Shown: in pieces, positions 1-27,656 of the stretch
How positions within the stretch are numbered: position 1 is the first letter of the stretch
Layout of the letters: each line of letters starts with the position of its first letter
Virus record (IMG/VR): IMGVR_UViG_2541047779_000001
Reading direction: 5' to 3' (one strand)
DNA: 36,485 bases
Source: a virus
Taxonomy: Duplodnaviria; Heunggongvirae; Uroviricota; Caudoviricetes
Notes under the pieces: model-generated
Told to the model about the DNA's origin: nothing
The model's database searches: none
What the model saw: the letters and a program-made list of their open reading frames with translations, nothing else
Program-made: the position numbers and the translations under genes

Positions 1-1053
1 TTACGGGGTAATGCCAACCGCTGCCGCCACTTTGTCGCCACTTGGCAATGTTGCCAGAGGATTGAAACGGAGCGCCGTTTCCAGATGATCCGGTGCCAGA
101 TGTGCGTAACGCATAGTCATTTTTATATCGTGGTGTCCGAGAATTTTTTGTAAGGCCAGGATGTTTCCACCCGACATCATGAAGTGCGCCGCAAAAGTAT
201 GGCGCAGAACGTGTGTCAGTTGACCGCGAGGGAGCACGATAGACGTTTTTTCCATCACGGATAAAAATTGAAAATAGCAGTCTGTGAAGAAATTGAACCC
301 ATCAAGCGCCATGATCTCTTCGTAAAGCTCTTTACTGATAGGGATGCTTCTGTTTTTCTTCCCCTTCGTTCTTACAAAGGTAATTCGGTATTTGGTCACC
401 TGTGAGCGGGTAAGATTTACGGCTTCTCGCCAGCGTGCGCCTGTGCTTAAGCATATCTTGACTACCAGAGCCAGAATTGGGTCCTGACGTTTGCAATCAG
501 CCAGTAATTCAACAATCTGCTCATGGGTAAGCCATGCCATCTCTTTTTCTGCGATGGTGAATTTTCGCATGTTCTCCAGTGGGTTCGGATACGACCATTC
601 GCCCAGACGGGATAGTTCGCTAAAAACACTACTTAGATAGCTTTGCTCCAGGTTAATGGTGACCGGGCTTGCTCCTTTCTTCCATTTCTCGCTGAAGTAG
701 ATCTCGCCTGTCAGGCGTTTATCTCGATAGTGGGCAAACATTTTAGAGGTGAGATCGGTTGCAAGAGGATTGCCTAGGGCGTCAACCATCAGCAGCAATT
801 TGTCATAGACATGATGTCCAGCAGTCAGAGATTTACCATGTAGTTTGAACCATAGCTCAACCACGTCTTTCAGGGTTCGACGATCCACTGATTCGCCCAG
901 CCAGGGCTTTGATTCGGTTTCTTCCATCGTGTGACGCTCAAAAGCCAGAGCTTCGCCTTTGGTGGCGAATTGTTTACGCACACGACGCCCACTTCGTCCG
1001 GCGGGGTAACATTCGCAAAGCCATTTCCCTGTGGTGAGTTTTCGTACTGCCAT
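1..1053 (-). CDS. int: Tyrosine integrase (P2/186 Int family)
   Basis: C-terminal catalytic motif HVLRHTFAAH...GHHDIKMTMRYAHL in the ORF translation. ORF track starts at 1209, but a start at the ATG at 1051..1053 (MAVRKLTTGKW...) gives a more typical length; that choice is a guess. Confidence 0.85.
   Translation of the reverse strand: MAVRKLTTGKWLCECYPAGRSGRRVRKQFATKGEALAFERHTMEETESKPWLGESVDRRTLKDVVELWFKLHGKSLTAGHHVYDKLLLMVDALGNPLATDLTSKMFAHYRDKRLTGEIYFSEKWKKGASPVTINLEQSYLSSVFSELSRLGEWSYPNPLENMRKFTIAEKEMAWLTHEQIVELLADCKRQDPILALVVKICLSTGARWREAVNLTRSQVTKYRITFVRTKGKKNRSIPISKELYEEIMALDGFNFFTDCYFQFLSVMEKTSIVLPRGQLTHVLRHTFAAHFMMSGGNILALQKILGHHDIKMTMRYAHLAPDHLETALRFNPLATLPSGDKVAAAVGITP
20..42. repeat. 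Putative attL core (direct repeat partner of 33634..33656)
   Basis: cgctgccgccaCtttgtcgccaC here versus cgctgccgccaTtttgtcgccaT at 33634..33656; 21 of 23 identical, same orientation, bracketing the prophage. Confidence 0.5.
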
Positions 1054-1241
1054 AAAAAATGCCCTCCAGTAGAGAGCATTTTTACTGTATGTATAACCAG
1101 TGTCAATGTATGAAATCCTACGACCATACATCTCACTGAAGCCATAATGAAGTTGGCTATTCTTTTTGCTATGTGAGCATGTAACTTTTGCGGTTAACCT
1201 GCGGCTCATTTTTATTTTAGACGCAGATATAAAAGCAAAAG

Positions 1242-1433
1242 TTATCGTGAGTTTTTAGTACAGATTTTTTTGGATTTACTAATAGTTCCATCATTGCAAA
1301 CGAATTTGCCATCTGGGGTACAGTGAGAAACACCTCCCTTTTTCCCTGAGCAGGGATAATTTCTAGCATAGGTAGTTAGTGGGTTTAATAACAAAGAACA
1401 TGACAAAACCACAAAAAATACCTTACCAAGCAT
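1242..1433 (-). CDS. Small hypothetical secreted cysteine-rich protein (63 aa)
   Basis: Strong RBS on the minus strand (gggaggaaact then ATG), N-terminal hydrophobic signal-like segment [23 protein letters not shown], six Cys in the mature part, AT-rich context between int and cI. Confidence 0.45.
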
Positions 1434-1448
1434 AGTTTCCTCCCGGTA

Positions 1449-2105
1449 CTATTTAACATACTTGACTGTTAAACTTATAATTTTACCAATTATTTCAATG
1501 TCTTCTATCTTGCATTCGAAGGCTCTGTTTCCACCCTCGACGAAGATTCTTCCACCGGGTAAACGAGTAATGTCACGGATCGTTATTTCGCCATCAATAC
1601 TTATTACCCATTTAGCATCACGTATATCATCAAATTCTTTATCACAAATAAATTCAGAATTGTTATCTGTGATGACAAAAGGTTTTTTAAACGTAGAGGG
1701 TAGAAATCCCTTATCAAAAATATAAAAACCGTCTTTCTGCAATGCTCCATCAGACAATAAATATTTTTCTACTTCTATAGTATTTGTATTTGCTGATGCT
1801 TGCTTTGAACCATGCCCTGTTGTTAGCCAATTAAGCGAGGTGCCCGTTTCAAGGGCGCACTGGATTACCCAATCTGCTGGAAAAATATCACGCATATAGC
1901 GCGTTGCCATGGTGCTCTTAGAAACACCTAAATGATCACAGAGAGCCTGACGGGTACCGAACCCATATGCTTCAACTAAACGTTCTATGGCTTTCTTACC
2001 GCCGCTATTGAAATCCACAAGTCCTCCAAAGAAATCCAAAATTCGTTGACAGATTCCAAAAGCGATCTTAAAGTTGAACCAGAAGTGTTCTTTTGGAGCC
2101 TTCAC
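1449..2105 (-). CDS. cI: CI-type immunity repressor (186 CI-like, HTH N-domain)
   Basis: N-terminal segment IERLVEAYGF...STMATRYMR...CALETGTSLNWLTTG resembles my recollection of the 186 CI HTH domain. The listed ORF start is a GTG and probably too far upstream; true start uncertain. Confidence 0.75.
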   Translation of the reverse strand: MKAPKEHFWFNFKIAFGICQRILDFFGGLVDFNSGGKKAIERLVEAYGFGTRQALCDHLGVSKSTMATRYMRDIFPADWVIQCALETGTSLNWLTTGHGSKQASANTNTIEVEKYLLSDGALQKDGFYIFDKGFLPSTFKKPFVITDNNSEFICDKEFDDIRDAKWVISIDGEITIRDITRLPGGRIFVEGGNRAFECKIEDIEIIGKIISLTVKYVK

Positions 2106-2163
2106 TACTAATCACGACAAACAACGGCTCGCCACAAGCCATATCTAGAAGGAATGTTGCCTT

Positions 2164-2367
2164 ATGACTCCTAACATTTCAATTACTCTGAATACACCAC
2201 ATGTCACAATCGAACGTTATAGCGAACTGACTGGCCTTTCTATTGATACGATTAACGACATGTTGGCTGATGGCCGACTACCTCGTCATCGTCTTCGTAA
2301 AGACAAAAAACGTGAAAAGGTAATGATTAACCTGGCTGCTCTGACTGTTGATGCTTTGTCTGCTTAA
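2164..2367 (+). CDS. Apl/Cox-like small HTH excisionase/regulator
   Basis: 67-aa basic HTH protein, first gene of the rightward operon facing cI, immediately upstream of cII. Confidence 0.65.
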
Positions 2368-2431
2368 TAGACGTCTATTTTCGCAATAAGACGCTGAGTT
2401 CGATTTTGCGATAAGTTCGGAGTTGAAAACC

Positions 2432-2941
2432 ATGTTTGATTACCAAGTTTCCAAACATCCACATTTTGATGAAGCCTGCCGTGCATTCGCACTGCGCCAC
2501 AATCTGGTGCAACTGGCAGAACGTGCTGGCATGAATGTGCAGATTCTGCGGAACAAGCTGAACCCATCTCAACCTCATTTATTAACCGCACCAGAAATCT
2601 GGCTGCTTACCGATCTGACTGAAGATTCAACGCTGGTAGATGGTTTTCTGGCACAGATTCACTGCCTGCCCTGTGTACCGATTAATGAGGTTGCAAAAGA
2701 GAAACTGCCGCATTACGTCATGAGCGCAACTGCAGAGATCGGACGTGTTGCAGCAGGTGCGGTATCTGGTGATGTAAAAACTAGTGCCGGTCGTCGTGAT
2801 GCTATCAGCAGCATTAACTCTGTAACACGACTGATGGCGCTGGCTGCTGTTTCATTGCAGGCCCGTTTACAGGCTAATCCTGCGATGGCGAGTGCAGTTG
2901 ATACCGTGACTGGCCTCGGTGCTTCATTCGGTTTGCTGTGA
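2432..2941 (+). CDS. cII: CII-like lysogeny establishment regulator (186 CII family)
   Basis: Translation [20 protein letters not shown]...[27 protein letters not shown] closely matches my recollection of 186 CII. ATG at 2432 with GGAG RBS gives 169 aa. Confidence 0.85.
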
Positions 2942-2948
2942 GGTGCTT

Positions 2949-3149
2949 ATGCTGACGAAAGAACCATCATTTGCATCGCTGCTGGTAAAACAAAGCCCGG
3001 CAATGCACTACGGTCACGGCTGGATCATGGGTGAGGATGGTAAACGCTGGCATCCGTGCCGTTCACAAGATGAATTGCTGGCAGAACTATCTACGAAAAA
3101 ACGGGGGAACAAATGGCTATTGAAGGCGCTGCGGCTACTGTTCCATTAA
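2949..3149 (+). CDS. Hypothetical early protein
   Basis: ORF with GAGGTG RBS before the ATG at 2949; position equivalent to the 186 fil/dhr region. Function not recognised. Confidence 0.45.
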   Translation: MLTKEPSFASLLVKQSPAMHYGHGWIMGEDGKRWHPCRSQDELLAELSTKKRGNKWLLKALRLLFH

Positions 3150-3454
3150 GCCCCGGTGAACGCCTGAATGGACTTAATCACATAGCGGAATTAAGGGCGA
3201 AAGTTTTTGGCCTGAATATTGAGTCAGAGCTTGAGCGGTTTATTAAAGATATGCGTGATCCACGGGATATCAATAACGAACAAAATAAACGAGCACTGGC
3301 AGCCATATTCTTTATGGCAAAAATTCCGGCTGAACGTCATAGCATCAGCATCAATGAGCTGACCACTGACGAAAAGCGGGAGTTGATTAAAGCAATGAAT
3401 CATTTTCGTGCAGTGGTGAGCTTATTTCCCAGACGGCTAACCATGCCGAATTAA
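3113..3454 (+). CDS. Hypothetical early protein
   Basis: 113-aa ORF with GGGGGAA RBS, in the early operon. Confidence 0.5.
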   Translation: MAIEGAAATVPLSPGERLNGLNHIAELRAKVFGLNIESELERFIKDMRDPRDINNEQNKRALAAIFFMAKIPAERHSISINELTTDEKRELIKAMNHFRAVVSLFPRRLTMPN

Positions 3455-3521
3455 CCAACTAATGAAATTAATGGCGTAAATCCGCCGAGCATCCCTTTAT
3501 CTAAATTCAGGAGAATTGATT

Positions 3522-3755
3522 ATGCGTAATATTGAAATCCTCACGACTAAAACCGGACCGGATGATGCAGGGCTTAATATTTTACTGACAGAGGCTCGTC
3601 TGGAAGAACGCCGGGCAAGGGCTGAAGCAATGGCAGCTCGCCTTGATAGCCTGGCGTGCCATATCACATCCCGCCAGCTAAACCACGTTGAAGCGGCTGA
3701 ACTGCTGCGTGTGGCAGCTGAAGCAATCCAGAACGAAGCGCAGGAGATCCACTAA
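3522..3755 (+). CDS. Hypothetical early protein
   Basis: CAGGAG RBS 8 nt before the ATG at 3522; stop overlaps the next start (TAATG). Confidence 0.55.
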   Translation: MRNIEILTTKTGPDDAGLNILLTEARLEERRARAEAMAARLDSLACHITSRQLNHVEAAELLRVAAEAIQNEAQEIH

Positions 3756-3982
3756 TGGCTGATGCAATGGATCTCGTACAGCAGCGCGTTGAAGAAGAAC
3801 GCCAGCGCCATATCCGTGCTGCCCGTGCCAAAACACCGGGCGTGTCTCGCGTGCTTTGCATTGAGTGTGAAGCGCCAATTCCGCCAGCACGCCGCCGTGC
3901 CATTCCGGGTGTGCAGCTTTGCATTACCTGCCAGGAAATTGCAGAGCTGAAAGGCAAACATTACAACGGAGGTGCTGTATGA
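3755..3982 (+). CDS. TraR/DksA-family C4 zinc-finger protein
   Basis: Two CxxC pairs (CIECEAP...CITCQ) in a 75-aa protein; translationally coupled to neighbours. Confidence 0.7.
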   Translation: MADAMDLVQQRVEEERQRHIRAARAKTPGVSRVLCIECEAPIPPARRRAIPGVQLCITCQEIAELKGKHYNGGAV

Positions 3983-4836
3983 GCACCATCCTGAAATGGG
4001 CGGGAAATAAAACCGCCATTATGTCCAAACTGAAAAAACACCTTCCTGCTGGCCCGCGACTGGTTGAACCTTTCGCGGGTTCCTGTGCAGTGATGATGGA
4101 GACGGATTACCCCAGCTATCTTGTTGCGGATATTAATCCTGATTTAATCAACCTCTATAAAAAGGTTGCTGCTGATTGTGAGGCGTTTATATCTCGTGCC
4201 AGAGCTTTATTTGAGGAAGCAAACAGGGAGGTGACTTATTACAACATAAGGCAGGAGTTTAATTACTCCACTGAAATTACTGATTTTATGAAAGCGGTAT
4301 ATTTTCTGTATCTCAATCGTCATGGTTACCGTGGGTTATGTCGCTATAACAAGAGCGGGTATTTCAACATTCCCTACGGTAATTATAAAAATCCGTATTT
4401 CCCTGAAAAAGAAATTCGCGCATTTGCAGAGAAAGCCCAGCGGGCAACGTTTATCTGCGCCAGCTTTGATGAAACGCTGGCGATGTTGAAGGTGGGGGAT
4501 GTGGTGTATTGCGATCCGCCTTATGACGGTACGTTTTCCTGCTATCACACTGATGGCTTCACTGAAGATGACCAGTATCACCTGGCATCTGTTCTTGAAC
4601 ATCGATCATCTGAAGGTCATCCGGTCATTGTTTCTAACAGTGACACATCCCTGATTCGTTCGCTGTATCGCAATTTCACTCACCACTACATCAAGGCAAA
4701 ACGCAGCATCGGCGTGTCGGCTGGCGAGAGTAAATCTGCAACAGAAATCATTGCTGTTTCCGGGGCGCGCTGCTGGGTGGGATTTGATCCTTCGCGTGGC
4801 GTGGATAGTTCTGCCATGTACGGAGTGCGTGCATGA
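3979..4836 (+). CDS. DNA N6-adenine methyltransferase (Dam-like)
   Basis: DPPY catalytic motif (VYCDPPYDG) and Dam-like N-terminus [11 protein letters not shown]...[18 protein letters not shown] before ATG at 3979; stop overlaps A start (ATGA). Confidence 0.85.
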
Positions 4837-7247
4837 GCCATGATGATATGAACAACTGCAGCGGCTTTAACGAGGTCGCCGCAGCATTCTCATGGAACAG
4901 CCCGAAAAAGGCCATTAACCCTTATCTGGACCTGGCGGAAGTTGCGCCGGTTTCTGCGCTTTCAAACCTGATCACTCTGTACGCTGTCGATAATGAGCAG
5001 GAACAACTGCGTCGCGAGGCACTAAGTGATCAGGTCTGGGAGCGTTATTTCTTTAATGAATCCCGTGATCCTGTCCAACGCGAAATGGAGCAGGATAAGC
5101 TCATTAGCCGGGCAAAGCTGGCGCATGAGCAGCAGCGTTTTAATCCAGATATGGTCATTCTGGCGGACGTCAATGCCCAGCCTTCCCATATCAGCAAGCC
5201 GCTGATGCAACGTATCGAATACTTCAGCAGCCTGGGCAGGCCAAAGGCTTATTCCCGCTATTTGCGTGAGACGATTAAGCCATGTCTGGAACGACTGGAG
5301 CATGTACGCGACTGTCAGCTATCCACTTCTTTTCGCTTTATGGCAAGCCATGAAGGGCTGGACGGCCTGCTGATCCTGCCTGAAATGAGTCAGGATCAGG
5401 TGAAACGCTTGTCTACTCTTGTCGCTGCGCATATGAGCATGTGTCTTGATGCAGCTTGTGGCGATTTGTATGCCACCGATGACGTTAAGCCAGAAGAAAT
5501 CCGCAAGACATGGGAAAGGGTGGCGGCGGAAACCCTGCGTCTGGATGTCATTCCTCCTGCGTTTGAGCAACTCCGCCGGAAAAGAAACCGCCGTAAACCC
5601 GTGCCCTATGAACTCATTCCGGGTTCGCTGGCGCGTATGTTGTGCGCCGACTGGTGGTATCGGAAATTATGGAAGATGCGTTGCGAATGGCGGGAAGAGC
5701 AGTTGCGCGCTGTCTGCCTGGTTAGCAAAAAAGCATCTCCTTATGTCAGCTATGAAGCCGTGATGCATAAACGTGAGCAGCGCCGTAAGTCGCTGGAGTT
5801 TTTTCGTTCTCATGAACTGGTGAACGAAGACGGCGACACGCTGGACATGGAGGATGTGGTAAACGCCAGCAGCAGCAACCCTGCGCATCGCCGCAATGAG
5901 ATGATGGCCTGTGTTAAAGGCCTGGAGCTTATCGCGGAAATGCGCGGTGACTGCGCCGTTTTCTACACCATCACCTGTCCGTCACGTTTCCATTCCACGC
6001 TAAATAACGGCAGGCCCAACCCGACCTGGACAAATGCGACGGTAAGACAAAGCAGTGATTATCTGGTCGGCATGTTTGCTGCATTTCGTAAGGCGATGCA
6101 CAAAGCCGGATTGCGCTGGTATGGCGTGCGGGTGGCTGAGCCGCATCATGACGGTACAGTTCACTGGCACCTGTTGTGTTTTATGCGCAAAAAAGATCGC
6201 CGCGCCATTACTGCTTTATTGCGTAAGTTTGCCATTCGTGAAGACCGCGAGGAGCTGGGGAATAACACGGGACCACGATTTAAGTCTGAGTTGATTAACC
6301 CGCGCAAAGGAACGCCGACAAGCTACATCGCGAAATATATCAGCAAGAACATTGACGGGCGTGGTCTGGCTGGCGAGATCAGCAAGGAAACGGGTAAATC
6401 TCTGCGTGATAACGCTGAATACGTGAATGCCTGGGCGTCTTTGCATCGTGTTCAGCAATTCCGCTTCTTTGGCATTCCGGGGCGTCAGGCTTACCGTGAA
6501 CTGCGATTGCTGGCTGGTCAGGCGGCAAGGCAACAGGGGGACAAAAAAGCAGGTGCGCCGGTACTGGATAACCCGCGCCTTGATGCAATCCTAGCTGCTG
6601 CTGATGCTGGTTGTTTTGCCACTTACATCATGAAGCAGGGCGGCGTACTGGTTCCCCGCAAATATCACCTCATCAGAACTGCTTATGAAATTAACGAAGA
6701 GCCGACCGCCTATGGCGATCACGGCATTCGTATTTATGGCATCTGGTCACCCATTGCAGAGGGCAAGATCTGCACTCATGCGGTGAAGTGGAAAATGGTT
6801 CGTAAGGCCGTTGACGTTCAGGAGGCGGCAGCCGACCAGGGCGCTTGCGCCCCTTGGACTCGTGGCAATAACTGTCCCCTTGCGGAAAATTTGAACCAAC
6901 AGGAGAAAGATAAATCAGCTGATGGGGACACCAGAACGGACATTACCCGCATGGATGACAAGGAGTTGCACGATTACCTGCACAGTATGAGCAAAAAAGA
7001 GCGCCGGGAACTGGCAGCAAGGTTACGCCTGGTTAAGCCGAAACGGCGTAAAGACTACAAACAGCGAATTACAGATCATCAGCGACAGCAGCTCGTCTAT
7101 GAACTGAAGTCCAGAGGATTTGATGGCAGCGAGAAAGAGGTCGATTTACTCCTTCGCGGTGGCAGTATTCCGTCAGGAGCAGGCCTGCGTATCTTCTATC
7201 GGAACCAGCGTTTGCGGGAAGATGATAAGTGGCGGAATCTGTATTAA
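4833..7247 (+). CDS. A: Replication initiation endonuclease (P2 gpA family)
   Basis: 804-aa protein in the position and with the size of the P2/186 replication protein; contains the HWH-type motif [10 protein letters not shown]. Confidence 0.85.
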
Positions 7248-8246: not shown

Positions 8247-9329
8247 ATGATAAACGTTACAAACGAAATGCTCATTGATGTTGTCAGTGATGCTCTTACC
8301 GGGAAGAGGGAAAGTCTCCTCATGCGGTTGCGGATTATGGCAAAAAAACTAAAAAAAGAATCTCCTGAATTAGCGGGTAAATTAGAAGATTTACTTATTA
8401 ATACGGGTGGCGCAATTGCAGTCGAAAGGGCTAATCCAGTTGTTCCTAAAATAACACCTGTTGATGCGGATACAAGACAAAAGCTGCTAGTTGAAACATA
8501 TCCTGTGGTCATTGATGTTGAACCTGTTTGGCCAACAAAAACTGATGTTCAACTGAATCGATTTGTGGCTGAGTGGGAAATGAAAGAACGCCTTTATAAA
8601 GAAGGGTTGCATCCCTCCAAATCTCTTCTTATGGGAGGACCACCCGGTGTGGGGAAGACTTTGGCTGCAAAGTGGCTCGCTTTTAAACTCGATATGCCAT
8701 TGTTAACATTAGATCTCGCAAGTGTAATGAGTAGCTACTTGGGGAAAACGGGTAATAATATTAAGGCAGTCCTCAATTATGCTTCGTCATTCCCTTGTGT
8801 ACTGCTTCTTGACGAATTTGATGCGATTGCTAAAAAAAGGGATGATGCAACAGATGTTGGAGAACTAAAAAGATTAGTTACAGTATTATTGCAAGCAATT
8901 GATGAATGGCCAAATACGTCTGTTCTTATAGCAGCAACTAACCATGCGGAGCTGCTTGATCCTGCTGCATGGAGAAGATTCGATCGAGTTATTGATTTTG
9001 AATATCCAACACAAGACCTAATGAGAAGATATCTCTGTTCTAAAAATATTGGAGATAGCTTATCGTACTATATTGCTACAAAACTCGAAAAAGTTTCATA
9101 TGCAGTTCTTGAGAGAGCTATAAATCAAGCTAAAAGAAATGCCATTATAGAAGATATTCCTTTAAGTTCAGCTTTAATTGATGAGTTGTTAGATGGCGTG
9201 TCACTTGATGATGTTATAAAAAACATGTCAAACAACAATGTATCACAAAGAAAAATCGCTTTAGATTTGGGGATTTCAAGGTCACAAGTACGTAAGGTTT
9301 TGACGGTTGAGGATGAAGACAATGAATGA
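8247..9329 (+). CDS. AAA+ ATPase with C-terminal HTH (IetA-like)
   Basis: Walker A GPPGVGKT, Walker B VLLLDEFD, C-terminal HTH-like tail (QRKIALDLGISRSQVRKVL). AT-rich gene with GGGTGG RBS. Confidence 0.85.
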   Translation: MINVTNEMLIDVVSDALTGKRESLLMRLRIMAKKLKKESPELAGKLEDLLINTGGAIAVERANPVVPKITPVDADTRQKLLVETYPVVIDVEPVWPTKTDVQLNRFVAEWEMKERLYKEGLHPSKSLLMGGPPGVGKTLAAKWLAFKLDMPLLTLDLASVMSSYLGKTGNNIKAVLNYASSFPCVLLLDEFDAIAKKRDDATDVGELKRLVTVLLQAIDEWPNTSVLIAATNHAELLDPAAWRRFDRVIDFEYPTQDLMRRYLCSKNIGDSLSYYIATKLEKVSYAVLERAINQAKRNAIIEDIPLSSALIDELLDGVSLDDVIKNMSNNNVSQRKIALDLGISRSQVRKVLTVEDEDNE

Positions 9330-11514
9330 TAAAAATATGCTTCTTGGCTATGGTGAAACACTAACTAACCCTGTTAAACTTAACAGAGGTGGAGGTGAAA
9401 AGAATAAACCTTACTCTTATTCAGAAAATAAACCAGTGATATCTGCTCAACTGGAAGAGTTGATTGAGGAAATTAATACCCTTCCATTGTTAGCAATGCC
9501 TGAAGGTAAGGCTGTAGCAAAATTTGTTTTGCATCCGGCATTCTTAGCAAAAAGTTATTTTCCAGTAAGTCTTTTTGAGCGATTTTCCCTAGAAAGCATA
9601 GGCAGTAAGGCTGTAAAAGTAAAACCTAGAAAAGATATTAAAAAAAGAGGGCGAAAAGAGGAATACACTACAGCGTGTATTTATGTTTCTGGCAAAAAAG
9701 AAAGTTTTCAATCATTCTTAGACTCTGTAAATCAAGATACCCTAACGAAAGGGCAGCAAAATGATTTTGTCACCTTAGAAAATATTTCAATACTGGAAGT
9801 TTCAGATAAAGTAAAAACGATTAATAGCAATGAAGTTATGAGTATTGAGGTCGCCTTACATACTCCTGATACAAGTTCCTCTATTGTCGATAGTTTTGAA
9901 GTTTTTGCTTCGCAAAATGGTGCTGTTATAGATAAGGCAAGAAGTATAAAAGTTAAGGGGCTAACCTTTATGCCTATTAAGGCTAGTAAAGATGTAGCTT
10001 TAAAAGTTGCAGAGTTTTCATTTCTCAGGACTTTGAGAGAACTTCCTGAATTAAGGCTAAGTGAGCCTGTTATATCACGTTCTGTGATTCAAACATCTAA
10101 CCTTAGTTTACCATCTGAAGGAGCGGTAAACCCACACATAAAGGTTGCCATATTCGATGGTGGATTGGGGATCGATGATTTCAATCCTTGGGTAACAGAG
10201 TACACTTTCAACGGTAATGCTAGTACTAATGCAAAACTTCTTTCTCATGGACAGGATGTCACCTCTACTGTGTTATTTGGTGTTCTTGGCTCTGAAACGG
10301 AAAAATTAAGTGTTCCTTATTGTAATATTGACCATTATCGTGTACTGGATTCCAATGTTAATAACTCAGATGTCGATCTTTTTGACGTTCTGATCCGTAT
10401 TAAAAGTGTATTAGAACAAAAAAAATATGATTATATCAATCTGAGCTTAGGACCTAGATTACCTGTTGATGACGATGACGTGCATGTGTGGACCTCAACT
10501 CTTGAGGAGATACTTGCATCAGGAGAAACACTTTGTACTGTCGCGGTTGGAAATGATGGTCAGCTGCCTGCCAAGTTAAATCGAATTCAACCACCTGCTG
10601 ATTTAGTTAATGGTCTGTCAGTAGGTGCAGCAACCTCTTTATCTGATAGTTGGGAAAGATGTTCTTACAGTTGTATTGGTCCTGGACGAAGCCCTGGCTT
10701 TGTGAAGCCTGATGGAGTTGCATTTGGAGGACATTCTGATGAGCCATTCCAGGTATACAGCCCTATGGTTAATGGTCTTGCCCGCACTGCGGGGACTAGC
10801 TTTTCTGCTCCATTAGTCCTGAGGCAAGCAATCGCGTTAAGTGCTTCTCTAAATTACAACATTACACCACTTACGGCTAAAGCTCTGCTTATACATCATG
10901 CGGAGAGCAATAATATCAATCGTGCTGAAGTTGGTTGGGGACGATTTCCTCATGATCTTAGTGAAGTAATATTTTGTGATGATGATGAAGTTAAAGTTAT
11001 ATATCAAGGTACTTTAAAACCATCACAACACATGCGAGCACCTGTTCCGTTTCCAGATGTACCTATGCGTGGATGTGTAAATTTAAGAGCGACATTCTGT
11101 TTTTCCAGTCCTGTAGATGCGGAACATCCTTTGAATTATACAAGAAGCGGTCTAGAAGTAACCATGAGAAAAGGTGTTTCAGATAGTTCCGGGTTAACGT
11201 TTCCTCTTTTTAATCTAAAAAATGTTTATGCAGATGAAAATGAGCAACGTGTTGATGCACATAAATGGGAGACTACGTTAAGAAGTGAACACAAATTTAA
11301 ACCGAATGAGCTGACAAACCCATGCTTTGATATTATCTACTATGGTAGAGACTGTGGTATGCCTATTGATGTTGACGAGTTAGAAGAACTACCATATGTT
11401 CTTGTTGTGACTTTATCTGCTGAAGAAATGCCGGATTTATATAACCTAATTAGGCAGAAATATCAAACCTTACAGCCTATCCAAGTTCAACAGCAAATTA
11501 TGTTACGTACTTAA
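9307..11514 (+). CDS. S8 subtilisin-like serine peptidase (IetS-like)
   Basis: Catalytic triad motifs in subtilase order: VAIFDGGLG (Asp), HGQDVTSTV (His), GTSFSAPLV (Ser). About 270 aa N-terminal region of unrecognised function. Start may be the ATG at 9322; overlaps the ATPase stop. Confidence 0.85.
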   Translation: MRMKTMNDKNMLLGYGETLTNPVKLNRGGGEKNKPYSYSENKPVISAQLEELIEEINTLPLLAMPEGKAVAKFVLHPAFLAKSYFPVSLFERFSLESIGSKAVKVKPRKDIKKRGRKEEYTTACIYVSGKKESFQSFLDSVNQDTLTKGQQNDFVTLENISILEVSDKVKTINSNEVMSIEVALHTPDTSSSIVDSFEVFASQNGAVIDKARSIKVKGLTFMPIKASKDVALKVAEFSFLRTLRELPELRLSEPVISRSVIQTSNLSLPSEGAVNPHIKVAIFDGGLGIDDFNPWVTEYTFNGNASTNAKLLSHGQDVTSTVLFGVLGSETEKLSVPYCNIDHYRVLDSNVNNSDVDLFDVLIRIKSVLEQKKYDYINLSLGPRLPVDDDDVHVWTSTLEEILASGETLCTVAVGNDGQLPAKLNRIQPPADLVNGLSVGAATSLSDSWERCSYSCIGPGRSPGFVKPDGVAFGGHSDEPFQVYSPMVNGLARTAGTSFSAPLVLRQAIALSASLNYNITPLTAKALLIHHAESNNINRAEVGWGRFPHDLSEVIFCDDDEVKVIYQGTLKPSQHMRAPVPFPDVPMRGCVNLRATFCFSSPVDAEHPLNYTRSGLEVTMRKGVSDSSGLTFPLFNLKNVYADENEQRVDAHKWETTLRSEHKFKPNELTNPCFDIIYYGRDCGMPIDVDELEELPYVLVVTLSAEEMPDLYNLIRQKYQTLQPIQVQQQIMLRT

Positions 11515-22216: not shown

Positions 22217-22814
22217 TCTGCTGCCACCGGGTTCAACACCACTGGAGCGCCGACTGGCGCAAACCTGCAGCGGGATTTCTGATCTGCAGGTGCCGCTGCG
22301 TGACTTGTGGAATCCGGCAACCTGTCCGGTCAGTTTCCTGCCTTATCTCGCCTGGGCGTTCTCTGTGGATCGCTGGGACGAGGGCTGGACAGAAAGCGTC
22401 AAGCGCCAGGTGGTGAAGGATGCTTTTTATATTCATCAGCATAAAGGGACCACCAGTGCCGTGCGGCGGGTGGTGGAGCCGTTCGGCTTTCTGATCCGCA
22501 TTATTGAGTGGTGGCAGACCGGAGAGGCACCGGGCACGTTTCGCCTGGATATCGGCGTGCAGGACCAGGGCATCACTGAAGATACCTATCTGGAACTTGA
22601 GCGACTGATAAGCGATGCCAAACCATGTAGCCGCCACATGATCGGCATGTCCATCAATCTGCAGACCAGCGGTCCATATTGGGTGGGGGCTGCAAGCTAT
22701 CTTGGCGAAGAAATCACGATCTATCCGTATATCAACGAAACAATTATTTCCGGCGGCACCGTGCATGAAGGCGGGGCGGTCCATGTTATTGACACAATGA
22801 GAGTGAATCCATGA
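22209..22814 (+). CDS. I: Baseplate/tail protein I
   Basis: Position and size; overlaps J stop. Confidence 0.8.
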   Translation: MNSLLPPGSTPLERRLAQTCSGISDLQVPLRDLWNPATCPVSFLPYLAWAFSVDRWDEGWTESVKRQVVKDAFYIHQHKGTTSAVRRVVEPFGFLIRIIEWWQTGEAPGTFRLDIGVQDQGITEDTYLELERLISDAKPCSRHMIGMSINLQTSGPYWVGAASYLGEEITIYPYINETIISGGTVHEGGAVHVIDTMRVNP

Positions 22815-24199
22815 GCACAAAATTTTATACCCTGCTGACGGATATTGGCGCGGCGAAACTTGCCAGCGCCGCCGCGCTCGGTGTGCCGTTAAAAATTACC
22901 CATATGGCGGTCGGCGATGGCGGCGGAACATTGCCAACGCCGGACGCAAAGCAGACTGCACTGGTAAATGAGAAACGCCGGGCTGCGCTGAATATGCTCT
23001 ATATCGACCCGCAGAACAGCAGCCAGATTATTGCCGAACAGGTGATCCCTGAAAACGAGGGTGGTTGGTGGATCCGTGAAGTGGGCCTGTTTGATGAGTC
23101 CGGGGCATTGATTGCCGTGGGCAACTGCCCGGAAAGCTATAAGCCGCAACTGGCTGAAGGCAGCGGGCGCACCCAGACCGTGCGCATGGTGCTGATAACC
23201 AGCAGCACGGACAATATCACCCTGAAAATAGACCCTGCTGTAGTGCTGGCAACCCGTAAATACGTGGATGATAAAGTCCTGGAATTAAAGCTGTATGTGG
23301 ATGACCAGATGAGAAACCACATTGCCGCACAAGATCCTCATACCCAGTATGCGCAGAAACATAATCCGACATTTACCGGAGAACCAAAAGCGCCGACGCC
23401 TGCAGCAGGAAATAACACCACTCGGATTGCGACCACAGAGTTTGTTCAGGCCGCTATTACTGCTCTAATTAACGGTGCGCCAGCCACGCTGGACACACTG
23501 AAAGAAATTGCTGCAGCCATTAACAATGACCCGAAATTCAGTACCACTATTAATAATGCGCTGGCACTGAAAGCGCCGCTGTCGAGTCCGGCACTTACCG
23601 GAACGCCAACAGCACCTACTGCGGCACAGTCGGTCAACAATACACAGATTGCCACTACGGCTTTTGTGAAATCGGCGATTGCAGGAATGGTGGGTTCTGC
23701 ACCTGCGGCACTGGATACATTGAACGAACTGGCGGCGGCGCTGGGGAATGACCCGAACTTTGCCACGACAATGCTTAATGCGCTAGCAGGTAAACAACCG
23801 CTGGACAATACGCTGACTAATTTGAGTGGAAAGGATGTAGCTGGTCTTCTCGCATACCTTGGTTTGGGAGAAGCCGCAAAACGAAACGTGGGAACACCGG
23901 AAAAGCAGACACCAGACACACCACCAAAAGCATCACGGAAAGGCAACCGAAAAACGCCAGATGCCGAAAAGGAACAAAAACGACCAAAGACTTACCCAAA
24001 GGAAAAAGGACCGGAATCCCCCAATGAGTCAATCCCCAGGCCAGATAAACAGACACCGGGCAATGCAACGAGACGCCAACGTGCAAGCCAGGCCGCAAAT
24101 ATCCGGGAACAGAACAACGAAAGCAATACAGGCACAAGAAACCAACGCAACGATAGACATGAAGATGCAGCCGGTTCAGCCAAAGGCGCGGAACAATGA
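22811..24199 (+). CDS. H: Tail fibre protein H; only the N-terminal/constant part (to about 23873) looks genuine
   Basis: N-terminus MSTKFYTLLTDIGAAKLA...MAVGDGGG and repeat region resemble P2 gpH. After ...AYLGLGE the frame runs into the A+C-rich segment and the C-terminal 108 codons are low complexity (K/P/T/Q/N-rich). Confidence 0.7.
   Translation: MSTKFYTLLTDIGAAKLASAAALGVPLKITHMAVGDGGGTLPTPDAKQTALVNEKRRAALNMLYIDPQNSSQIIAEQVIPENEGGWWIREVGLFDESGALIAVGNCPESYKPQLAEGSGRTQTVRMVLITSSTDNITLKIDPAVVLATRKYVDDKVLELKLYVDDQMRNHIAAQDPHTQYAQKHNPTFTGEPKAPTPAAGNNTTRIATTEFVQAAITALINGAPATLDTLKEIAAAINNDPKFSTTINNALALKAPLSSPALTGTPTAPTAAQSVNNTQIATTAFVKSAIAGMVGSAPAALDTLNELAAALGNDPNFATTMLNALAGKQPLDNTLTNLSGKDVAGLLAYLGLGEAAKRNVGTPEKQTPDTPPKASRKGNRKTPDAEKEQKRPKTYPKEKGPESPNESIPRPDKQTPGNATRRQRASQAANIREQNNESNTGTRNQRNDRHEDAAGSAKGAEQ
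23859..23873. repeat. Left inverted repeat / putative invertase crossover site
   Basis: ttggtttgggagaag is the exact reverse complement of 25693..25707. Confidence 0.7.
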
Positions 24200-25692
24200 A
24201 ACATCGGCAAGGAAACAACATGGCATACCCGGAAGAACGGCAGTCGAACAACAAAGAAAAAGAAAAAAAGCCAGAAAAAAAAGCAGGTCAGATACACCAA
24301 CGAAGATGCAAGCAAGAGAAACATGACACACAACCACAAGGAAAAGACAGAAGAAATGGAAAAGACGAACTGCCGAAAAGACCAGAAAGCCCTAAACCAA
24401 CACGAAAACAACAAACAGAACCAGCAGAAACAAAAAAGCAAAAATAGATCAACAACAACAAAAAATATAGCAACAGGAGACAATAGCCCGGCAAAGCCCC
24501 GACTGGACGCACCAAAGACAAAGAAAGCGCGCAATACAATCTGTCGCTCGATAAACTGAAAGCAATGGAAATAGGCGACACACCAACGCCGCCAAATAGT
24601 CAATAGCACACAAACCCGACAGACCAAACAAAACAAAATCCCGCGCGATGACCCTAAAAATACAACCAACAGCGCCAAAGTAACGCAACACAACGAAAAG
24701 GAGGGTGAGAAATGGCTGAAGCAGACCCAGCCACACCAGAAAGCCCAAGTAAACCAGACAAAAGCAAACCATCACACAATCAATCAGACACCAACGCCGT
24801 CCATCAGCCGCACCCAACGCAAAGCAAAGCCCGGCCGCAAGATCAGGCACACAGAAAACACCAGACCAAACACCGTACGGAATTAAAGGGACGAGAGGAC
24901 GGCAACAGACACCAGAACCACCCCGAACGGCAACTGCCCTGAAATCCCCCAGGACGAGACCATACAAAACCTCACCCACAGGAACTAGCAAACAGCCCCA
25001 GGAAGTCAAAACAACACAGCCACAAATTACATAACCACAGTTACGCACACCTCAGACAACCAAAAACCAACATACCAACACACCGACGACGACACAGAGA
25101 AACGCAGGCCAGATAAAAAAATAGCCCCGCGTTACGCCAGCATAATGAAATACGATCATCACCCCATCATGGAAAAAGAAACCCCCATGCACCAAAACAA
25201 CCTGCTCCAACAAAGCAGCACTCACAATCTAGTGAAATGCAATAGAAAGAGGCCCACAAAAACACGCCCCCGAAATCAAAACATTTGTCCTAACCACACG
25301 CACACTGTCAAACATAAAGACACTCAAATCCGTAAACAAATACAAGAACCCGCAAGCACAAATACTCAACCACAACCAAAACACAGAGAAAAACGAACAA
25401 CAAACAACACCAGAAATGAAGGGAGCCACGAACCAGCCAGGCATCCAATGGGTAGCCCCAAACATAGACCCCCCCCCAAAACAAACAACCAACACAACGA
25501 AAACAACACCTCGCCCAGCAAACCAAACCCGAAAAAAAACACCGCCCAAAACAGGCAAGTGTAAACCAGGAAAACCAATTCCCACCCACGGGTAAACTGA
25601 ACCAGAAAAAAGTGCACCCCAGCATGAAACCCAGCCAGATGATGACATAGCAGAAAGCCAAGGAACACCCACACCAACAGGCAACGCTGACC
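23874..25692. other. Invertible segment with extreme strand-asymmetric A+C-rich composition and no credible genes
   Basis: On the plus strand T is nearly absent and G reduced; for example 25381..25440 contains a single T. ORFs on both strands are low complexity. Confidence 0.8.
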
Positions 25693-25707
25693 CTTCTCCC
25701 AAACCAA
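25693..25707. repeat. Right inverted repeat / putative invertase crossover site
   Basis: cttctcccaaaccaa is the reverse complement of 23859..23873. Surrounding sequence ttctcccAAACCaaCGTTTaagaaaa (25694..25719) resembles Hin/Gin/Cin crossover sites. Confidence 0.7.
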
Positions 25708-25768
25708 CGTTTAAGAAAATGCAGCGATTACGACTAACTGGCATCATCCCCGGTTTTTATTCAGGGGG

Positions 25769-26341
25769 ATGATCATGCTTATTGGCTATGTACGCGTGTC
25801 AACAAATGACCAGAACACCGATTTGCAACGTAATGCACTGAACTGCGCGGGATGTGAGCGGATTTTTGAGGATAAAATCAGTGGCACTAAGTCCGACAGA
25901 CCAGGGTTGAAAAAACTGCTCAGGACACTATCGGCAGGAGACACGCTGGTTGTCTGGAAGCTGGACAGGTTGGGGCGCAGTATGCGGCATCTTGTTACGC
26001 TGATAGAAGAGTTACGCCAGCGTGGTGTGAATTTCAGAAGCCTGACTGACAGTATTGATACCAGTACCCCAATGGGCCGTTTCTTTTTTCATGTCATGGG
26101 TGCCCTGGCTGAAATGGAACGCGAACTGATAGTTGAACGTACCAGGGCAGGGCTGGCTGCAGCTCGTGCCAAAGGCAGAGTAGGTGGACGCCGTCCTAAG
26201 TTGACCACCGAACAGTGGGCACAGATTGGGCGTTTACTCGAGGCCGGAGAATCAAGACAGCGTATTGCACTGATTTTTGATGTAGGCGTTTCTACCATTT
26301 ATAGAAAATTTCCGGCAAATAAGATCAATGAATCCCCCTGA
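25769..26341 (+). CDS. Serine recombinase, DNA invertase (Hin/Gin/Cin/Pin family)
   Basis: N-terminal catalytic region MLIGYVRVSTNDQNTDLQRNAL with the active-site Ser, resolvase-type core, C-terminal HTH (FDVGVSTIYRKF). Confidence 0.9.
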   Translation: MIMLIGYVRVSTNDQNTDLQRNALNCAGCERIFEDKISGTKSDRPGLKKLLRTLSAGDTLVVWKLDRLGRSMRHLVTLIEELRQRGVNFRSLTDSIDTSTPMGRFFFHVMGALAEMERELIVERTRAGLAAARAKGRVGGRRPKLTTEQWAQIGRLLEAGESRQRIALIFDVGVSTIYRKFPANKINESP

Positions 26342-26389
26342 ATCAGCATTATGTTGATTATCCCTGCAAGCAGACAAATACCGTTATTT

Positions 26390-26407
26390 TGTGTGAATAA
26401 CGACACA
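26390..26407. promoter_or_regulatory. Ogr/Delta-type late promoter activator dyad upstream of FI
   Basis: TGTGTGAATAACGACACA: TGT-N12-ACA, about 75 bp before the FI start. Confidence 0.45.
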
Positions 26408-26483
26408 ACTGCGCTTAGCTGTTTGTCAGGCACAATCACTTCAACATAGGGCGAAGCCTAATCCAATCAGGAGGTTCGCCACT

Positions 26484-27656
26484 ATGGCTCAGGATTACCA
26501 CCACGGGGTGCGCGTTGTTGAAGTCAACGAAGGCACCCGATCTATTACCACGGTGAGCACCGCCATCGTGGGTATGGTCTGCACGGGCGATGATGCCGAT
26601 GCAAAAATGTTTCCTCTTAATAAACCCGTGCTGATCACTGATGTGCTGACTGCCAGCGGTAAAGCGGGTGAGTCCGGTACTCTGGCCCGTTCGCTGGATG
26701 CCATCGCTGACCAGGCAAAACCCGTGACCGTTGTTGTGCGTGTGCCGCAGGGTGAAACGGAAGACGAAACCACGACCAATATCATCGGCGCAGTGACTGC
26801 TGAAGGTAAAAAAACAGGTATGAAAGCCCTGTTATCTGCCCAGTCACAGCTCGGCGTTAAACCGCGCATTCTCGGCGTGCCAGGCCACGACACCAAGGCG
26901 GTAGCTACTGAGTTGCTGAGCGTGGCGCAAAGCCTGCGTGGATTTGCTTACCTGTCAGCGTATGGCTGCAAGACGGTACAGGAGGCGATCACTTACCGTG
27001 AAAACTTTAGCCAGCGCGAAGGGATGCTGATCTGGCCTGACTTTACTGGCTGGGACACGGTGCTGAATGCCGAAGCAACGGCATATGCCACCGCCCGTGC
27101 GCTTGGTCTGCGCGCCAAAATTGACGAGCAGACCGGATGGCACAAAAGCCTGTCCAACGTGGGCGTGAACGGTGTCACCGGAATTTCTGCTGATGTGTTC
27201 TGGGATCTGCAGGACCCGGCAACCGATGCAGGACTGCTGAACCAGAACGACGTCACCACGCTTGTGCGTAAAGACGGTTGCCGCTTCTGGGGTTCCCGCT
27301 GCCTGAGTGATGACCCGCTCTTTGCCTTCGAAAACTACACCCGCACGGCGCAGGTGCTGACGGACACAATGGCAGAAGCGCACATGTGGGCAGTGGACAA
27401 ACCGCTGAACCCGTCGCTGGCGCGCGACATTATCGAGGGCATCCGCGCCAAAATGCGCAGCCTGGTCAGTCAGGGGTATCTCATTGGTGGTGATTGCTGG
27501 CTGGATGAGTCGGTGAACGACAAAGACACGCTGAAAGCCGGAAAACTCACCATCGACTACGACTACACGCCAGTGCCGCCACTTGAAAACCTGATGCTGC
27601 GTCAGCGCATCACCGATCAGTACCTGGTGAATTTCGCCAGCCAGGTCAGCGCGTAA
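26484..27656 (+). CDS. FI: Contractile tail sheath protein FI
   Basis: 390-aa protein with AGGAGG RBS, followed by the tube gene. Confidence 0.9.

Follow-up and report, generated by a model that had tools for sequence, protein, structure and literature searches.

Within a window of 36,485 nucleotides, the whole stretch of viral DNA analysed here (Caudoviricetes; IMG/VR record IMGVR_UViG_2541047779_000001), the tail-fibre gene H of a P2-like prophage runs into about 1.8 kb of strongly A+C-rich sequence, which lies between two short inverted repeats and beside a DNA invertase. The question raised by this locus is what the A+C-rich block is, and whether any such DNA exists. An earlier note made from the letters alone had offered three readings, namely strand-specific hypermutation or editing of a locked segment, a consensus artefact from reads of both orientations, and a genuine non-coding cargo. 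Our analysis leads to the answer that the block is almost certainly a bioinformatic superposition of an invertible cassette on its own reverse complement, absent from any cell. Computation established four things in support of it: the block equals the alphabetical minimum of a cassette and the reverse complement of that cassette; it is mirror-symmetric; it is restricted to the stretch that the two repeats enclose; and a normal cassette lies beneath it. The visible elements of the locus are the following.

22811..23873, plus strand: constant N-terminal part of the tail-fibre gene H (Pfam Phage_tail_fib N-terminal domain, E=2.5e-65)
23859..23873, no strand: left 15-bp inverted repeat TTGGTTTGGGAGAAG, the exact reverse complement of 25693..25707
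23874..25692, no strand: the A+C-rich block, almost certainly an artefact (triangular substitution matrix, fit to the minimum model, mirror rule and 7:5:3:1 composition, all described below)
25693..25707, no strand: right 15-bp inverted repeat CTTCTCCCAAACCAA, the mirror partner of 23859..23873
25775..26341, plus strand: intact serine DNA invertase of the Gin/Hin/Cin/Pin type (Pfam Resolvase, E=2.2e-53; HTH_7, E=1.4e-15)

The constant part of H is 93-97% identical to that of E. coli P2-like prophages, and it is real and unaffected up to the left crossover site. The left repeat, which is part of a Gin/Hin-type crossover site, sits in frame within H at ...LGLGE.... The presence of an intact Hin/Gin-type invertase next to the block, as the earlier note had described it, is confirmed by the Resolvase and HTH_7 domains; the N-terminus of the protein reads MLIGYVRVS with a serine at position 9, and its counterparts in relatives are annotated as "recombinase family protein".

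The 1819 nt of the block (23874..25692) contain 815 A, 545 C, 324 G and 135 T, that is, 44.8% A, 30.0% C, 17.8% G and 7.4% T, against a balanced composition in the flanks. The AT skew stays at about 0.65-0.83 throughout the block, compared with about 0.1-0.2 in the flanks, and takes ordinary values at both edges. In a scan of the whole 36.5 kb, all 200-nt windows in which any base accounts for 8.5% or less fall inside the block, and the density of T shifts exactly at the 15-bp inverted repeats. Both the base bias of the block and its boundaries are far beyond chance. Thus the base counts and the skew agree with the earlier description of an A+C-rich, strand-asymmetric block at 23874..25692, and the shift in T density agrees with its statement that the skew starts and stops at the repeats. 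The long open reading frames had also been described there as low in complexity and as a product of stop-codon depletion, and this holds as well: those on the plus strand are rich in R, K, Q, T, P and N, those on the minus strand are rich in L, F, V, C and G, no Pfam family was matched by the reading frames within the block, and all six frames of the block are poor in stop codons (7-20 each, versus 12-42 in the true cassette). A fibre-like reading had been noticed just inward of the right repeat and there alone; the reading at the right is indeed present (GLGEGSALPVGVGVPW), but a few fibre-like codons are kept inward of the left repeat too (GLGEAAKRNVGT). The block has no match in public sequences by megablast or exact search, and the exact search with a 42-mer taken from it gave zero matches in IMG/VR, the GTDB species representatives and the JGI metagenomes.

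When the region 22500..27000 was compared with complete E. coli genomes by megablast, the flanks alone were matched, with a coverage of 60-64%. Megablast of the flanks themselves against these genomes gave best identities of 96-99% and no identical record. In several genomes the matched span equals the length of the query exactly (in MS10860, for example, query positions 1-4499 correspond to 4499 bases), so that in length the block matches a normal invertible cassette. Placed against the cassette of E. coli MS10860 at offset 0, the block is 63% identical in an ungapped alignment, with no insertion or deletion in 1.8 kb. The substitutions from MS10860 to the window, counted by base, are given below.

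MS10860 A to window: A 469, C 0, G 0, T 0
MS10860 C to window: A 104, C 326, G 0, T 0
MS10860 G to window: A 116, C 102, G 221, T 0
MS10860 T to window: A 126, C 117, G 103, T 135

This matrix is strictly triangular in the order A<C<G<T, with zero changes "upward" in the alphabet, and its proportions are those of min(x, y) in that order, where x is the base of the cassette and y is an unrelated base. Alignment with the invertible segment of a related P2-like prophage had been suggested earlier as a check on whether the differences are systematic; run here, it shows through the triangular matrix that they are. Another cassette variant, L002 of strain H1, was tried as a candidate and rejected, with an ungapped identity of only 41%, at a different offset.

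The source of the base y becomes evident when the MS10860 cassette, denoted S, is combined with its own reverse complement. With 23856..25710 as the inverted interval, we compared S with its reverse complement column by column and kept the alphabetical minimum, min(S, revcomp S); the result agrees with the window at 1854 of 1855 positions. Wherever the two orientations disagree, the window carries the alphabetical minimum in 1350 of 1351 columns and the maximum in none, and a third base never appears in these discordant columns, save for a single exception explained by a SNP. This sole mismatch lies at 24151, where C is observed and G is predicted, and its mirror position 25415 reads A; on enumeration of the allowed base pairs, both columns are explained by one SNP, a change of C to G at 25415 with respect to MS10860. 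It should be noted that the cassette used for this deconvolution comes from another strain, of which the left flank is only 93% identical to the window, and the fit of the cassette is nevertheless 99.95%. The minimum of two bases has an expected composition of 7:5:3:1 for A, C, G and T, or 43.75/31.25/18.75/6.25%, to be compared with the observed 44.8/30.0/17.8/7.4%. Two simpler candidates were rejected: an alphabetical-maximum rule fits at 27%, and a single orientation fits at 64% for S alone and 63% for its reverse complement alone. As to the flanks, 8.2 kb compared with a relative of 96.8% identity displays no alphabetical bias, with 134 differences towards the lower base and 128 towards the higher one, and these differences are dominated by transitions.

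The same model can be examined without any reference. If position i of the window is W[i] = min(x, comp y) and its mirror position is W[mirror] = min(y, comp x), the model permits no more than 10 mirror pairs out of 16; each T, for example, has to face an A. Among the 927 mirror pairs of the window there are 0 violations of this rule, whereas shuffling the same bases produces 105 on average and never fewer than 87. With any other centre of symmetry there are at least 80 violations, so that the mirror centre is unique; it satisfies p+q=49566, which equals 23859+25707 and is thus set by the inverted repeats themselves.

Underneath the block, the deconvolution with the MS10860 cassette predicts the following features, of which the fibre C-terminus of orientation A is legible only after this step.

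23874..24193, plus strand: underlying variable C-terminus of H in orientation A (L001 CDS 812..2194 at offset 0; Pfam Gp53-like_C)
24193..24636, plus strand: underlying assembly chaperone of orientation A, masked (L001 CDS 2194..2637; Pfam Caudo_TAP, E=3e-33)
24608..25210, minus strand: underlying assembly chaperone of orientation B, masked (L001 CDS 2609..3211, minus; Pfam Caudo_TAP, E=1.5e-29)
25211..25692, minus strand: underlying alternative fibre C-terminus (L001 CDS 3212..3745, minus; Pfam Collar, E=5e-15)

In MS10860 itself, one strand of the cassette encodes a Gp53-like_C fibre end with a Caudo_TAP protein and the other strand a Collar fibre end with a Caudo_TAP protein. The constant part of H, joined to either end, gives an open frame, of 460 aa in orientation A and of 514 aa in orientation B. 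The cassette is 100% identical between MS10860 and LR-33 and 99.9% identical in the ST131 strain 4224. Relative to H, strain 4224 has the cassette turned the other way round, and its annotation includes the 514-aa fusion as a CDS of 1545 nt. Both types of junction occur among complete E. coli genomes (8 and 474 genomes, respectively). An exact search with a 159-mer of the left flank retrieved six IMG/VR contigs, 94-97% identical to the window and of normal sequence, so that none of them is the source; among genome and metagenome contigs the 159-mer had no match. The source record turned up in none of INPHARED phages, RefSeq complete E. coli genomes, IMG/VR, GTDB species representatives and JGI metagenomes. 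Clonal E. coli cultures are reported to hold both orientations of the invertible segments of P2-like prophages (PMC4272514). The identity of one and the same cassette across strains, the existence of both junctions, the intact fibres and the culture data of PMC4272514 together show the underlying biology to be an ordinary host-range switch of the Mu-G/P1-C/e14-P type in a P2-like prophage. Three claims of the earlier note have to be given up in this light: the fibre segment is not "replaced", for an ordinary cassette is there in full, overlaid with its own reverse complement; the fibre ends and chaperones are not absent, the cassette that reproduces the block encoding two of each; and gene H does not end in junk, both orientations giving intact in-frame fibres.

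How such a superposition might have arisen can be outlined as follows. The prophage cassette consists, in order, of an inverted repeat, a fibre end and its chaperone, the opposite-strand chaperone and fibre end, and the second inverted repeat followed by the serine invertase. Two full-length versions of the locus, identical in flanks and length and differing in the orientation of the cassette, would have been overlaid column by column, and wherever they disagreed, the base that comes first in the alphabet (A, then C, then G, then T) would have been kept. Two routes lead to exactly this outcome. One would be a consensus of two sequences or of equal weights, in which a tie is decided in favour of whichever base is listed earlier in an A,C,G,T table, as an argmax does; the other would be the writing of IUPAC two-base codes that were later turned into their first base (M, R and W to A, S and Y to C, K to G). 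The manual of a commercial assembler is said to give ties to A, C, G and T in that order, and a literature search for documentation of such a tie-break rule yielded irrelevant papers only. We infer, rather than observe, the software step responsible, whether it was an error in the assembly as deposited or a deliberate or accidental transformation when the window was prepared. The superposition itself implies that both forms were in the input; likewise, both orientations presumably coexisted in the sequenced material, as is expected for a prophage with an active invertase.

The alternative nearest to this is an ordinary pile-up, in which the reads of a mixed-orientation culture were mapped and the majority base was called. 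It has in its favour that mixed orientations are expected in cultures of lysogens (PMC4272514) and that the affected region is exactly the invertible interval. Judging from how mappers behave, however, reads from inside the flipped form should align without mismatch to the opposite strand in their own place, which would leave a clean pile-up, and calls based on counts would fluctuate, yet the minimum is found in 1350 of 1350 explained columns and there is no insertion or deletion. A column-wise merge of two full-length forms, or a first-letter resolution of IUPAC codes, fits better, and we regard the pile-up as improbable. The ungapped and exception-free mirror register needs two full-length forms merged column-wise or first-letter ambiguity codes, which refines the consensus artefact that had been listed among the earlier readings: in substance this reading stands by the minimum model and the mirror test, but its source in "reads of both orientations" does not hold in so simple a form.

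Far less probable still, to a degree that makes it negligible, is strand-specific hypermutation or editing of a locked segment, in which a deaminase or error-prone copying would have stripped T and G from one strand. The skew is in fact strand-asymmetric and limited to the segment, and the conservation of A as A is complete, as such a process might leave them. Nevertheless, the outcome at 1350 of 1351 columns is the complement of the base at the mirror position rather than a mutational spectrum; C, G and T are all altered, in about equal shares to each lower base and with transitions and transversions mixed; no insertion or deletion occurs in 1.8 kb; and the flanks and the invertase are untouched. 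Moreover, the order A<C<G<T is alphabetical and not chemical; it is a convention made by people, and neither mutation nor editing can yield a pattern that follows it. The triangular matrix and the outcomes dictated by the mirror position thus exclude this reading.

Least probable of all, by a small step further, is a genuine non-coding A+C-rich cargo in place of the fibre ends and chaperones, which would agree with reading frames that lack a Pfam match and a block that lacks a public match by megablast or exact search, but which is excluded by a length exactly equal to that of the known cassette, by an ungapped identity of 63-64% to both orientations of the cassette at once with a minimum rule that reproduces 99.95%, and by full compliance with the mirror constraint, which unrelated DNA would break at about 105 of 927 pairs.

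With the superposition of the two orientations taken as the explanation, the existence of the A+C-rich DNA as a physical molecule is effectively excluded; the A+C-rich block belongs to no biological family and holds no new biology. To report a "hypermutated" or "junk" fibre gene at this locus would be to make a false discovery and to label the prophage fibre-defective in error; the true content is a standard two-state host-range switch with fibres intact in both states. The block should be masked, or swapped for one real orientation, before annotation or model training. The chances are about even that the artefact is also of some use, in that it may record both orientations in the sequenced material together with an active invertase, and that its signature may serve as a reference-free screen for active invertons. 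This signature, comprising the 7:5:3:1 composition, the triangular matrix and the mirror rule, could find and repair merged invertible segments in public assemblies.

Regarding the known systems, the window is best compared with the G segment of Mu with Gin, the C segment of P1 with Cin, the P segment of e14 with Pin, and their equivalents in P2-like prophages of E. coli. In all of these a serine invertase adjoins the segment and short inverted repeats lie inside the fibre gene, both as here. The fibre in these systems has a constant N-terminus and either of two C-termini, with a separate Caudo_TAP chaperone for each C-terminus, and the arrangement underneath the block is the same. Both orientations are found in nature, as here, and nothing biological seems to differ; what sets the window apart is that it shows the two orientations summed into one string instead of a single orientation. 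APOBEC-type C-to-U editing and the adenine-specific mutagenesis of DGRs bear a superficial likeness to the block, as localized strand-asymmetric change in a phage receptor-binding gene, but they act on one source base with a characteristic spectrum, whereas here C, G and T are changed, A never is, and the mirror position dictates the result. The block also resembles artefacts of consensus or IUPAC resolution, in which disagreeing columns are turned into the alphabetically first base, and the 7:5:3:1 composition and the triangular matrix are the same here. The difference from other artefacts of this kind is that the "alleles" here are a sequence and its own reverse complement, which adds the perfect mirror constraint and confines the damage to the invertible interval.

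Compared with Escherichia coli MS10860, the tail-fibre locus is, on sequence identity, a mosaic: the constant part of the tail-fibre gene H (window 22500..23873) is 93.4% identical, the hidden invertible cassette (23874..25692) reaches 99.95%, and the invertase/sheath side (25693..27000) stands at 98.6%. This pattern of identity is consistent with a recent exchange of the cassette.

The 1819-bp cassette is also found, 100% identical, in another genetic setting in E. coli LR-33 (the relative L010, NZ_AP027523.1; 1866..4602), where its neighbours are an invertase of another allele and, beside tonB-yciI, a DUF2612/baseplate-J tail module; the locus hosting it there is no P2-type H gene. As one unit, the invertible cassette appears to move among unrelated tail modules.

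The two ends of the window are marked by the following genes.

1..1209, minus strand, left end of the window: phage integrase
33866..35551, minus strand: ybjL, aspartate:alanine antiporter gene of the host chromosome; 5420 out of 5426 E. coli genomes have a match to it

With this host gene at the right end and the integrase at the left, gene content identifies the window as a complete P2-like prophage together with a single flank of the Escherichia chromosome, a chromosome with no counterpart in the set of complete RefSeq genomes. Its early region carries a methyltransferase gene upstream of replication gene A, and an IetAS-type anti-phage defence pair of two genes is encoded at 8247..11514 on the plus strand.

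3919..4836, plus strand: D12-class N6-adenine DNA methyltransferase (Pfam MethyltransfD12, E=6e-76)
within 8247..11514, plus strand, first gene of the pair: AAA ATPase (PADLOC IetA, E=7e-84)
within 8247..11514, plus strand, second gene of the pair: S8 subtilase (IetS, E=3e-48)

The pair, where C content is locally only 9-13%, occupies the P2 variable hotspot, with replication gene A (4833..7247) on one side and the portal/terminase block on the other; in relatives this hotspot holds different cargo, e.g. GmrSD and DUF2971.

Returning to the cassette, each of the 15-bp repeats flanking it resembles the inner half of a candidate Gin/Hin-type crossover site of about 26 bp, whose central dinucleotide would fall at 23859-23860 on the left and at 25706-25707 on the right.

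23848..23873, left candidate crossover site: TCTCGCATACC-TT-GGTTTGGGAGAA
25693..25718, right candidate crossover site: TTCTCCCAAACC-AA-CGTTTAAGAA

These candidate sites of about 26 bp are presumably comparable with the hix/gix consensus sites.
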